A stretch of DNA of 64,000 bases, taken from the UHGV virus genome UHGV-1378516; one strand, given 5' to 3'. Below are positions 31,854 to 33,607 of the stretch, in pieces; the stretch's first letter is position 1, and every line of letters begins with the position of its first letter. The position numbers and the translations under genes are program-made. This DNA comes from a virus. The notes under the pieces were generated by a model. The model did no database searches, was not told where the DNA came from, and was given only the letters and a program-made list of their open reading frames with translations.

Positions 31854-32225
31854 ATGAAAGCTAAGAGTGCAAAAGACTTTTATTGCTTCCTACAATCCTA
31901 TATCAATTCCGTGCAAAATGGTGAAAGGTACAACCTTAATGATGTTATCCCAACACCTTTGACATGGAGACTCAGTAAATGGCCTGAAGAAGATATTACA
32001 CCAACAATCGAACAATGCACCTACAAACCCGAAATAAATATTCCAGACTCTGAGAATCTATTATATCCAATGTTCCATATTGTTGGTCTTGGAAGATTCC
32101 TTATGGATATCCAGTATGTAATTGGTAAAGGTTATAAGGTTAAAGGTATTGTTGTTGGTGATGTATCTCCGCATCACAAAGGTTATTTTAGACTAAACGC
32201 ACATTTAGAGGCTAAAAAGAAATGA
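31854..32225 (+). CDS. hypothetical protein; stand-alone paralogue of N-terminal domain of 32222..33607
   Basis: 123 aa; N-terminal similarity to next gene (..F..SYI..V..G.RY.....I.P.L...S.WPE.DI...E...YKP..). Confidence 0.5.
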   Translation: MKAKSAKDFYCFLQSYINSVQNGERYNLNDVIPTPLTWRLSKWPEEDITPTIEQCTYKPEINIPDSENLLYPMFHIVGLGRFLMDIQYVIGKGYKVKGIVVGDVSPHHKGYFRLNAHLEAKKK

Positions 32226-33607
32226 TTAAAGCAAAGACTTACCCAGACTTCAAAGAGTTTGTGAAGGGCTTCATTGCAAATGTAAAGGCTGGTAAGAGAT
32301 ATGATTTTAGAACATATCAAGAGGCTATTTTACCACTCACCTATAGTTCATATTGGCCTGAAGCTGATATTGCAGAAGTTGAGGAGTTTGACTACAAACC
32401 AGACTACAAAGTCCCATTTAGCGATGAGTTGCTTTACAGCGTTGGTGCTCAAATGAGAACTTCTGACTTCTTCATGGACTTACAATATACAATTATCAAT
32501 GGTAAAGACGTTGATACAGTTTATTGTGAATGGCTGGCAAGAGTTAAACCGTTCTCAATGTTGAATGCTAAGTTGAAGGATGCTATCAAGCCACCAGCAA
32601 TCACTCAGCAACCAACCAATCAAACAGTAAATGAAGGTGGTACACTTAACCTAAGCGTTATTGCAACTAATGCCACAGGATATCAATGGAAAAAAGATGG
32701 TGAGGATATCACTAGCGCCACATCTGCAACCTACACAAAACAGTCTGTAGTACCTTCTGATGCAGGTTCATACACTTGCGTTGTATCTGGAGAGGCTGGA
32801 ACAAGCGTTACCTCAGATGCGGCAACAGTTACTGTTAACGCACTACCTGTGATTACACAGCAACCTTCTAGCCAGACCATCAATGAGGGTGGAAACATCA
32901 GCTTGGAAGTGACTGCAACGGGTGCAACTGGTTACCAGTGGAAGAAAGATGGCTCTGACATTCCTTCGGCTACAGAGGCTACCTATAGCAAGTCTGGTGC
33001 TCTGCCAGCAGATGCAGGTTCATACACTTGCGTCGTAACAGGGGCAGGTGGTTCTGTTACTTCTAGCCCTGCAACTGTCACGGTAAATGCTTTACCAGTT
33101 ATTACCAAGCAGCCAACCAATCAGGTAGTTAATGAGGGTAGCTCTTTGACACTGAGTGTTGAGGCGACAGGTGCGGAAGGTTACCAGTGGAAAAAGGACG
33201 ATGTGAACATCCCTAGTGCAACTGGTGCAACTTACACGAAAGCTAACGCAGTTCCTGACGATGCTGGTTCATATACCTGTGTAGTTACTGGTGCTGGTGG
33301 CACAACAGTCACATCTAATGCTGCAACGGTTACTGTGAATGCACTTCCTGTAATCACTCAACAGCCAATCAATCAAGAAATCACTGAAGGTGAGACCTTA
33401 ACGCTGAATGTTGTGGCAACAGGTGCAACAGGCTATCAGTGGAAGAAGGGTGAGGAAAACATCCCAGACGCAACTACTGCAACTTACACCAAAGAAGGTG
33501 CAACCACTGCTGATTCAGGAAGCTACACTTGTGTAGTGACTGGCGCAGGTGGCTCTGTAACATCTAATGCGGCAACAGTTACAGTTAACCCAGCAGGGGA
33601 GGCATAA
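32222..33607 (+). CDS. protein with four tandem Ig-like (I-set-type) repeats
   Basis: 461 aa; four ~83-aa repeats each with ..GYQWKKDG..ATYTK..DAGSYTCVVTGAGG..ATVTVN.. signature. Confidence 0.6.
   Translation: MIKAKTYPDFKEFVKGFIANVKAGKRYDFRTYQEAILPLTYSSYWPEADIAEVEEFDYKPDYKVPFSDELLYSVGAQMRTSDFFMDLQYTIINGKDVDTVYCEWLARVKPFSMLNAKLKDAIKPPAITQQPTNQTVNEGGTLNLSVIATNATGYQWKKDGEDITSATSATYTKQSVVPSDAGSYTCVVSGEAGTSVTSDAATVTVNALPVITQQPSSQTINEGGNISLEVTATGATGYQWKKDGSDIPSATEATYSKSGALPADAGSYTCVVTGAGGSVTSSPATVTVNALPVITKQPTNQVVNEGSSLTLSVEATGAEGYQWKKDDVNIPSATGATYTKANAVPDDAGSYTCVVTGAGGTTVTSNAATVTVNALPVITQQPINQEITEGETLTLNVVATGATGYQWKKGEENIPDATTATYTKEGATTADSGSYTCVVTGAGGSVTSNAATVTVNPAGEA
32590..33600 (+). repeat. 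four tandem ~250-bp coding repeats (Ig-like domain units)
   Basis: Recurring ..CCAGTTATTAC.CAGCAGCC..AATGAGGGTGG.. / ..GGTTACCAGTGGAAGAAAGATGG.. blocks; coordinates approximate. Confidence 0.6.

Follow-up and report, generated by a model that had tools for sequence, protein, structure and literature searches.

A four-Ig capsid decoration protein and an Ig-less paralog of its anchor in a translationally coupled unit of a Felixounavirus

The window analyzed here is the whole 64,000-nucleotide stretch of UHGV virus genome UHGV-1378516, which comes from a Felix O1-like myophage of the genus Felixounavirus and is, across the window, 99.3% identical to Escherichia phage MET-P1-301. Three consecutive genes on its plus strand are the subject of this study. 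The first (31854..32225) encodes a 123-amino-acid (aa) protein of pI 8.8 that falls in phrog_4463 and is treated below as an Ig-less paralog of a capsid-binding domain (CapBD). The second (32222..33607) encodes a 461-aa protein of pI 4.5 with four Ig-like repeats, for which we use the name Hex-Dec from phage Bas63, and the third and last (33607..34071) encodes an endolysin (Phage_lysozyme in Pfam, E 1e-40). The paralog and Hex-Dec genes meet in an ATGA overlap, and the endolysin start at 33607 shares a single base with the Hex-Dec stop (TAATG), as expected from the initial annotation, which had placed a lysozyme directly downstream.

The 5' side of these genes is bounded by a terminator-like stem-loop at 31816..31831 on the plus strand (AGGGGC-TGAT-GCCCCT followed by a T-rich tail). 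This element was missed by a simple terminator scan and found by reading the sequence, and it carries a rho-independent terminator annotation in wV8, in Mordin, and in Table 2 of Felix O1. On the 3' side, the terminator scan returned an intrinsic terminator at 34081..34098, also on the plus strand, with a 7-bp stem containing 5 G-C pairs and then a T-run; wV8 and Mordin have a terminator annotated at the corresponding position. Judged from the sequence, the paralog, Hex-Dec, and endolysin genes are thus a translationally coupled unit with terminators at both ends. The same triad is common to wV8, Sf17, SUSP1, Mordin, and one divergent metagenomic contig.

The unit lies in a plus-strand block, while the capsid, protease, portal, and tRNA genes (2460..30143) are all on the minus strand, so that the opposite-strand location first noted for the Ig gene is correct. 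The major capsid protein (MCP) gene, at 16103..17209 on the minus strand, encodes the predicted binding partner of Hex-Dec (match to 9NCF_A, E 1.9e-247) and is about 15 kb away. Such an odd location was remarked on in the literature of 2010 and 2025, and in Bas63 over 10 kb separate the Hex-Dec gene from the structural module (PMC12609058). Expression in Felix O1, where Hex-Dec and the paralog (ORF 37) peak late, accounts for a head protein gene lying far from the head genes.

Hex-Dec begins with a CapBD (aa 1 to 124, 32222..32593) that contains R79 and R107 and is 97% identical to the CapBD of 9NCF_S. Four Ig-like repeats of 82 to 84 aa follow on the same strand: repeat 1 (aa 125 to 208, 32594..32845), which is 96% identical to Ig1 of Bas63; repeat 2 (aa 209 to 291, 32846..33094), supported by Pfam, repeat alignment, the AF2 model, and comparison with Bas63; repeat 3 (aa 292 to 375, 33095..33346), a variable internal cassette; and repeat 4 (aa 376 to 457, 33347..33592), the terminal unit, which is retained in every copy-number variant examined. 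Pairwise identities among the repeats are 66 to 73% in protein and 62 to 71% in DNA. Pfam finds four stretches each for Ig_3 (PF13927; E 1.7e-43, 147.4 bits against a gathering cut-off of 30), I-set (PF07679; E 7.7e-34, 116.1 bits against a cut-off of 23.7), and Ig_2, in agreement with the four I-set-like repeats of about 83 aa described in the initial annotation. Its further statement that the repeats are visible as DNA tandem repeats of about 250 bp holds only weakly. A repeat search gave four-copy families of 36 to 41 nt spaced 249 to 252 nt apart, but Tandem Repeats Finder, run on 31000..34500, found no 250-nt array, as the repeat DNA is too diverged.

Structure prediction supports the same picture. 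The AF2 model of aa 125 to 457 is all beta, with four domains and a pLDDT of about 94, and Foldseek places its best matches in Ig1-4 of Robo1/2 (E 1e-26), so that the beta-sandwich fold for which a structural check had been proposed is recovered. The CapBD is poorly modelled in the full-length prediction, with pLDDT below 50 over aa 1 to 119, and because of this low confidence we excluded that part of the model from any inference. A similar difficulty was met with Sf14, whose authors report a mismatch between their AlphaFold CapBD and the density (PMC11821841).

Comparison with solved capsids identifies the protein. Hex-Dec matches chain S of the Bas63 capsid (PDB 9NCF) over residues 1 to 459 (phmmer, E 7e-271) and chain S of the Sf14 capsid (PDB 9C2D) in an alignment that starts at residue 1 (E 3.8e-209), and it is 91% identical overall to the Bas63 protein. 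By sequence, the product of 32222..33607 is the ortholog of Hex-Dec of Bas63, gp20 of Sf14, and gp36 of Felix O1, and is therefore an already known protein. Cryo-electron microscopy (cryo-EM) of Bas63 located the CapBD only at edge-hexamer centres, with four Ig domains predicted (PMC12609058); gp20 was found by virion mass spectrometry of Sf14, where R79 and R107 touch D221 of the MCP (PMC11821841). R79, R107, and D221 are all present in the phage studied here. Capsid docking can be inferred for it from the 97% CapBD identity together with a near-identical capsid protein, and the edge-hexamer site and its occupancy are likewise extrapolated from the orthologs.

Most GenBank records for this protein say otherwise, with labels such as "putative tail protein" and "major tail protein." The name "major tail protein" was given to Felix O1 gp36 in 2010, phrog_3995 carries the label "tail protein," and the matches also include PHROGs with Ig domains that are named "major tail protein." However, the matches to these tail PHROGs are confined to the Ig repeats, and outside the repeats Hex-Dec is homologous only to the capsid-bound CapBD and to no tail protein. 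The N-domain of the orthologs lies at capsid hexamer centres in cryo-EM of two phages (9NCF and 9C2D), and the Bas63 authors call the label a mis-annotation (PMC12609058). A role in the tail has already been refuted for the orthologs and is very improbable here.

The gene neighborhood invites another explanation, that Hex-Dec is a non-virion protein of the infected cell or its envelope that works with the endolysin, for instance in lysin targeting or binding of cell-wall glycans. Its gene is translationally coupled to that of the endolysin and sits among small plus-strand genes at a distance from the structural module, and the Felix O1 lysin has no holin next to it, all of which is compatible with this. 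Yet orthologs are abundant in virions, with 14 peptides and 44% coverage for gp36 in Felix O1 mass spectrometry and a positive result in Sf14, and they have been seen on the capsid. The N terminus has no evident signal peptide or transmembrane segment and corresponds to a globular, helical domain whose structure was determined on the capsid. We give partnership with the lysin almost no credence. The initial annotation had implied a puzzle, an Ig protein that might not be part of the virion, and this puzzle falls away because the orthologs have been shown experimentally, by cryo-EM and virion mass spectrometry, to be capsid surface proteins.

We therefore favor capsid decoration, with the following mode of action. 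As shown for the orthologs, one Hex-Dec monomer would dock through its 124-aa N-terminal CapBD in the acidic centre of each edge hexamer. On the T=9 head, all 60 edge (peripentonal) hexamers would be occupied and the 20 face-centre hexamers left free, and R79 and R107 would hold each monomer in place by forming salt bridges with capsid D221. The four acidic Ig-like domains (pI 4.2 for the Ig region) would point outward as a flexible fibre; the Ig fibres are not resolved in the cryo-EM maps of Bas63 and Sf14 (PMC12609058, PMC11821841). The analogy with T4 Hoc suggests that the fibres may let virions adhere weakly and reversibly to glycans or cell surfaces, or may disperse virions electrostatically, and that growth on most laboratory hosts would not require them. 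In PhageMaP data, the Ig protein of Bas63, gp124, was more essential on strain S17-1 only. For the full explanation, comprising a decoration protein that docks on edge hexamers, a coupled unit, recombination among the repeats, and a paralog that arose as a CapBD duplicate, we estimate a probability of about 0.93.

Relatives with one to four Ig domains have been described (PMC12609058), and copy-number variation, suggested at the outset as a check, is evident from span lengths: spans of about 1001, 1253, 1502, and 1754 nt correspond to 1, 2, 3, and 4 Ig units. The form in wV8 is Ig1, Ig2, and Ig4, with repeat 3 absent, and that in REP7 is an Ig1/2 hybrid followed by Ig4. The four-Ig form is not unique to Bas63, as at least 11 phage records have a 1386-nt gene. 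Repeat 3 of the present phage is only 65% identical to Ig3 of Bas63, a value no higher than that between paralogous repeats of a single protein, so that the internal cassette has a different history. Ig number probably shifts by in-register recombination between internal repeats, with the first and last units staying in place.

The gene upstream adds another level to this system. Its product aligns with the N-domain of Hex-Dec at 37% identity over 101 aa (BLASTP, E 1e-17), confirming that the first 120 or so residues of the Ig protein are paralogous to the preceding gene, and it matches 9NCF_S (phmmer, E 3.1e-12). The AF2 model of the paralog has a pLDDT of 77, and its sole significant Foldseek matches are 9ncf_S and 9c2d_S (TM 0.64 to 0.65). 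By gene order it is wV8 gp42, Felix O1 gp37, and Bas63 g125. For Bas63, counting from g130 (Ro60-like, adjoining the tRNAs) and taking gp124 as the Ig protein makes g125, g124, and g123 the paralog, Hex-Dec, and endolysin, respectively. We had considered g123, the retron-Ec67 trigger in PhageMaP, as a candidate for the paralog and rejected it, since the gene count makes it the endolysin. Neither cryo-EM paper, on Bas63 or on Sf14, mentions the paralog gene (PMC12609058, PMC11821841).

Sequence comparison indicates that the paralog is under purifying selection, with a dN/dS across genera of 0.13 to 0.14, compared to 0.03 for the CapBD. The gene keeps its place, its coupling to Hex-Dec, and a product of about 123 aa in the Ounavirinae genera Felixounavirus, Mooglevirus, and Suspvirus and in a metagenomic phage that is more distant. 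All 11 aligned paralogs have Gly at position 79, so that the R79 anchor is lost; at position 107, one of them has Arg and the other 10 have His or Gln. An intact copy is missing from 19 of 253 phage records, and the gene is pseudogenised in REP7 and Z31. The paralog is probably an old CapBD duplicate that lost its Ig domains or never had them, and a functional yet dispensable gene.

What the paralog does is a matter on which we hold views less firmly. One possibility is a second, basic, Ig-less "blank cap" at hexamer centres that Hex-Dec does not use, with the face-centre hexamers or procapsid hexamers as candidate sites, or else a competitor of Hex-Dec; if so, the number of Ig fibres per head, or their placement, would depend on it. 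The paralog shares its fold and family with the solved CapBD, its basic pI would suit a capsomer centre with negatively charged Asp (PMC11821841), and its selected, translationally coupled gene lies directly upstream of Hex-Dec and is maximal late in Felix O1. Icosahedral averaging would, moreover, smear a monomer on a true 3-fold axis to one third of its density. Against this, the other hexamers are reported to lack density in the two cryo-EM studies (PMC12609058, PMC11821841), the 17 proteins listed for the Felix O1 virion proteome do not include gp37, the anchoring arginines are mostly replaced, and some natural isolates do without an intact copy. This specific proposal seems to us rather unlikely.

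The same absence from virion lists and capsid maps, the same loss of arginines, and the same dispensability in natural isolates would fit a factor outside the virion. It could assist Hex-Dec as a chaperone or partner, or it could simply have kept the fold while serving an unrelated purpose inside the cell; the paralog surface is also far less conserved than that of the CapBD, in line with the dN/dS values. Strict retention beside Hex-Dec across three genera and a metagenomic phage suggests, however, a function tied to Hex-Dec, and there is no sign of another activity, a Pfam search of the paralog having returned no matches. A non-virion role is possible, at somewhat less than even odds. Our best guess, weakly held, is that the paralog also acts at capsid hexamers.

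For the phage at hand, the main finding adds little, namely, that this isolate has the four-Ig form of a known decoration protein. Papers of 2010 and 2025 had already covered the structure of the anchor, its site on the capsid, the presence of the protein in virions, the odd place of its gene, and the variation in Ig copy number. The practical value lies in annotation, as most database records still say tail protein. Beyond what was published, Ig number varies by gain or loss of internal units with the first and last kept, and the third unit here is a cassette different from that of Bas63. The conserved and selected Ig-less paralog of the capsid anchor, within a coupled unit, was found to be previously undescribed.

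Also beyond the published work is the view, drawn from sequence relationships, of the anchor as a small, portable display family. Word-seeded homolog searches gave close relatives only, and distant CapBD members were reached by a full HMM scan of 1.84 billion proteins, in which the family forms just 12 clusters at 50% identity. These distant members bear other display domains (Big_2 and Big-like), pointing to the anchor as a portable capsid-display module. A profile search for a tandem Ig-less paralog at distant loci L011-L013 found one CapBD gene at each, and a 205-aa gene upstream of distant homolog P0101, considered as a CapBD paralog, was rejected as unrelated.

Among known systems, the closest is Hex-Dec of Bas63 (Escherichia phage JohannRWettstein), with 460 aa against 461, four Ig units, and the same neighbors and capsid protein; the two differ in the divergent third unit. 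In gp20 of the Shigella phage Sf14 (9C2D/9C3A chain S), a Mooglevirus, the CapBD, the R79/R107 anchors, the use of pentamer-proximal hexamers, and detection in virions are alike, but the protein has 372 aa and three Ig units. T5 pb10 (5LXK, 8ZVI) likewise binds hexamer centres, and it too has its capsid anchor at the N terminus and an Ig-like domain at the C terminus, the latter homologous to aa 299 to 374 of Hex-Dec (E 3e-12 and 6.5e-12). It has a single Ig domain, however, and the match is limited to the Ig part (8zvi_a residues 81 to 159), the anchors not being detectably related.

T4 Hoc offers the functional parallel: a monomer at the hexamer centre with an acidic string of Ig domains, non-essential in the laboratory, whose Ig number varies among relatives. 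The Ig region of Hex-Dec matches "Hoc-like head decoration" PHROGs, although these matches cover only the Ig part (best stretches aa 289 to 459 and 293 to 372), and no Hoc chains are among the PDB sequence matches listed for Hex-Dec. The domain order is reversed, with the anchor C-terminal in Hoc and N-terminal in Hex-Dec. The Bas63 authors describe the Hoc anchor as the larger of the two, with a different topology and pseudo-C2 symmetry (PMC12609058). Hex-Dec, unlike Hoc, sits on only 60 of the 80 hexamers and in a single orientation. Lacking the C-terminal Hoc domain, Hex-Dec falls outside the Hoc family, yet it works like Hoc.

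Compared with known structures, the window's Ig-repeat protein (32222..33607, +; 461 aa) belongs by sequence to the Hex-Dec/Sf14 gp20 family of capsid decoration proteins, and every defining feature of that family that sequence can test was found in it. In the PDB it matches chain S of the Bas63 capsid entry 9NCF, labelled "Immunoglobulin-like domain protein" (E 7e-271, residues 1-459 on 1-458), and chain S of 9C2D/9C3A from the Sf14 capsid (E 3.8e-209). Identity to the Bas63 protein is 91% overall, with 97% over the capsid-binding domain (CapBD, aa 1-124), 96% in each of Ig1, Ig2 and Ig4, and 65% in Ig3. 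Sf14 gp20 uses R79 and R107 for salt bridges to Asp221 of three capsid subunits (PMC11821841); both arginines are conserved in the window protein, and the window's major capsid protein (16103..17209, -; E 1.9e-247 to 9NCF chain A) has Asp at position 221. This identity is already known: the name Hex-Dec comes from the Bas63 study, in which four Ig-like domains were predicted without resolved density, the gene lay over 10 kb away from the structural module, and "tail protein" was recognized as its mis-annotation in most genomes (PMC12609058).

For orthologs, the N-domain has been shown to bind the hexamer centre as a monomer, at 60 sites on a T=9 head, and the protein to be present in virions. 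Sf14 gp20, specific for pentamer-proximal hexamers, was found in virions by mass spectrometry (PMC11821841), and Felix O1 gp36 (31.6 kDa, adjoining the lysin gp35) was represented in the virion proteome by 14 peptides at 44% coverage, with ORFs 36 and 37 maximally expressed late (2010; PMC3185647). Going by these orthologs, the window phage would have the same arrangement of monomers, hexamer centres, 60 sites and virion presence. Of the hosts tested in PhageMaP, E. coli S17-1 was the only one on which the Bas63 Ig protein, gp124, was more essential.

The initial annotation had proposed two open reading frames, four Ig-like repeats in the second, and an N-terminal domain there that is paralogous to the first, all of which are borne out. 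Upstream of Hex-Dec lies a 123-aa ORF (31854..32225, +), the paralog, whose first ~100 residues share 37% identity with Hex-Dec (E 1e-17). In the 461-aa product Pfam recognizes Ig_3 (E 1.7e-43), Ig_2 and I-set (E 7.7e-34), each in four stretches; a Pfam scan of the 123-aa paralog gave no domain. With unit borders set by a recurring P-x-I-T-x-Q-P start, the plus-strand repeats are Ig1 (32594-32845, aa 125-208), Ig2 (32846-33094, aa 209-291), Ig3 (33095-33346, aa 292-375) and Ig4 (33347-33592, aa 376-457). The ~250-bp DNA tandem repeats also claimed are visible as 36-41-nt four-copy families spaced 249-252 nt in a repeat search, but as an array they are missed by Tandem Repeats Finder. Compared in pairs, the units agree at 66-73% of protein and 62-71% of DNA positions, and identical residues use the same codon in only 31-53% of cases, a divergence from which we infer that the repeats are old. 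AlphaFold2, run as a check on the fold, predicts four all-beta domains (pLDDT about 94 over aa 125-457), for which the best Foldseek matches in the PDB are Robo1/2 Ig1-4, Sidekick, contactins and titin. CapBD had no confident model in the full-length run, a difficulty that the Sf14 authors also met (PMC11821841).

Variation in repeat number among relatives, anticipated from the sequence, is apparent: across 219 matching phage records, the stretch that covers paralog and Hex-Dec comes in lengths of about 1001, 1253, 1502 and 1754 nt, which match one to four Ig units. The Bas63 analysis covered 18 ICTV species, with one to three Ig domains in other Felixounavirus species, and might suggest that four units are peculiar to Bas63 (PMC12609058); the full 1386-nt four-Ig gene is present in at least 11 phage records, so this is not the case. 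Unit by unit, the three-unit wV8 carries the window phage's Ig1, Ig2 and Ig4, and the two-unit REP7 an Ig1/Ig2 hybrid plus Ig4. From these contents, and from the identity of only 65% between Ig3 and Bas63 Ig3, it follows that the end units are kept and the internal ones exchanged, as would be expected of in-register recombination between repeats. Ig3, absent from three-Ig relatives such as wV8, behaves like an exchangeable internal cassette.

The paralog is the only part for which we found no description in the literature. In the Bas63 and Sf14 cryo-EM papers the word "paralog" is absent and no neighbouring gene is discussed (PMC12609058, PMC11821841), and its family, phrog_4463, is annotated as function unknown. 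The protein matches 9NCF chain S (E 3e-12), and 9ncf_S and 9c2d_S (TM 0.64-0.65) are the sole significant PDB neighbours of its AlphaFold2 model (pLDDT 77, pTM 0.77). Orthologs share 72-98% identity, complete ones being 120-124 aa, and dN/dS against those of Mooglevirus and Suspvirus is 0.13-0.14, similar to neighbouring genes (0.08-0.14) and higher than CapBD (0.03). Together, sequence and model are evidence for a functional CapBD-family gene under purifying selection. On the other hand, the paralog is basic (pI 8.8, against 5.2 for CapBD), lacks the R79 anchor (Gly in all aligned paralogs), and has His or Gln at position 107 in all but one. Of 253 matching phage records, 19 keep the Hex-Dec hit alone. 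REP7 (L004 2378-2571) and Shigella phage Z31 carry just a remnant of the paralog, which has lost ~225 nt internally and has no start codon. The Z31 record (remnant and Hex-Dec region, L005 2377-3142) also splits Hex-Dec between two CDS, of 405 and 168 nt, and the Hex-Dec open frame there encodes a 136-aa CapBD only, reflecting either an Ig-less decoration protein in the isolate or sequencing errors in the record. Felix O1 gp37, the paralog's ortholog, is absent from the virion protein list (PMC3185647), and neither the Bas63 nor the Sf14 study reported density on the other hexamers (PMC12609058, PMC11821841). Since evidence for a functional CapBD-family gene stands against evidence for difference from CapBD and dispensability, we keep two readings, neither strongly held: the paralog may be a minor or transient capsid ligand, or a non-virion partner of Hex-Dec. 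GenBank GU169904.1 (Staphylococcus phage SA1, 143190-143558), probably a chimeric or contaminated record with Felix O1-like DNA, also contains a paralog that shares 99.2% identity with the window's and adjoins a "putative tail protein".

The window is a Felixounavirus: over the 4-kb region compared, identity is 99.3% to Escherichia phage MET-P1-301 and 93-95% to many Felix O1-like phages. The maturation protease and portal genes lie, like the capsid gene, on the minus strand; paralog and Hex-Dec are in a block on the plus strand, some 15 kb away from the capsid gene. The paralog stop and Hex-Dec start overlap as ATGA, and the two genes are translationally coupled; Hex-Dec's stop overlaps, as TAATG, the start of the next gene, the endolysin (33607..34071, +; Phage_lysozyme, E 1e-40). 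The trio is flanked upstream by a G+C stem-loop (31816-31831) and downstream by a strong terminator (34081-34098), both terminators in the wV8 and Mordin annotation, and recurs in wV8 (Felixounavirus), Sf17 and Mordin (Mooglevirus), SUSP1 (Suspvirus) and a more divergent 87-kb metagenomic contig. Gene order, counted from the Ro60-like g130 by way of the Ig protein g124, suggests that the endolysin corresponds to Bas63 g123, reported as toxic only in Ec67 retron-carrying cells and a candidate defence trigger (PhageMaP preprint, PMC11482910). A Ro60/TROVE-like RNA-binding protein gene (28728..30143, -; 471 aa, phrog_850) adjoins a cluster of 26 tRNA genes (23351-28562, -); in PhageMaP its Bas63 ortholog, gp130, counters the ppl defence system, and Y-RNA-like RNAs among the tRNAs are its proposed ligands.

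When 1.84 billion representative proteins were searched with a profile built from CapBD and paralogs, no more than 12 clusters (50% identity) came up at E <= 0.001. Distant members share the N-terminal anchor but differ in the display module behind it, which is I-set (P0100, P0104) or, in members from metagenomes, Big_2 (P0101, P0102), Big-like (P0105) or a Lys/Ser-rich tail (P0103), and because of this swapping the anchor looks like a portable capsid-display module. No second CapBD gene was found at the distant loci with DNA available around them (L011-L013), and in the data examined the tandem paralog is confined to the Ounavirinae-like clade.

By analogy, the role of the Ig fibres may be likened to that of T4 Hoc, for which virion dispersal, pH-dependent aggregation and surface adhesion are reported (PMC10385173), and whole Hex-Dec is acidic (pI 4.5; Ig part 4.2) like Hoc. 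However, Hoc's anchor is at the opposite end with no detectable relation, and the Hoc-like PHROG matches of Hex-Dec cover the Ig region only; Hex-Dec is not a Hoc family member, though it would work like T4 Hoc. T5 pb10, whose anchor is not shared with Hex-Dec, arranges its domains in the same order, and its Ig domain is homologous to those of Hex-Dec (E 3e-12).
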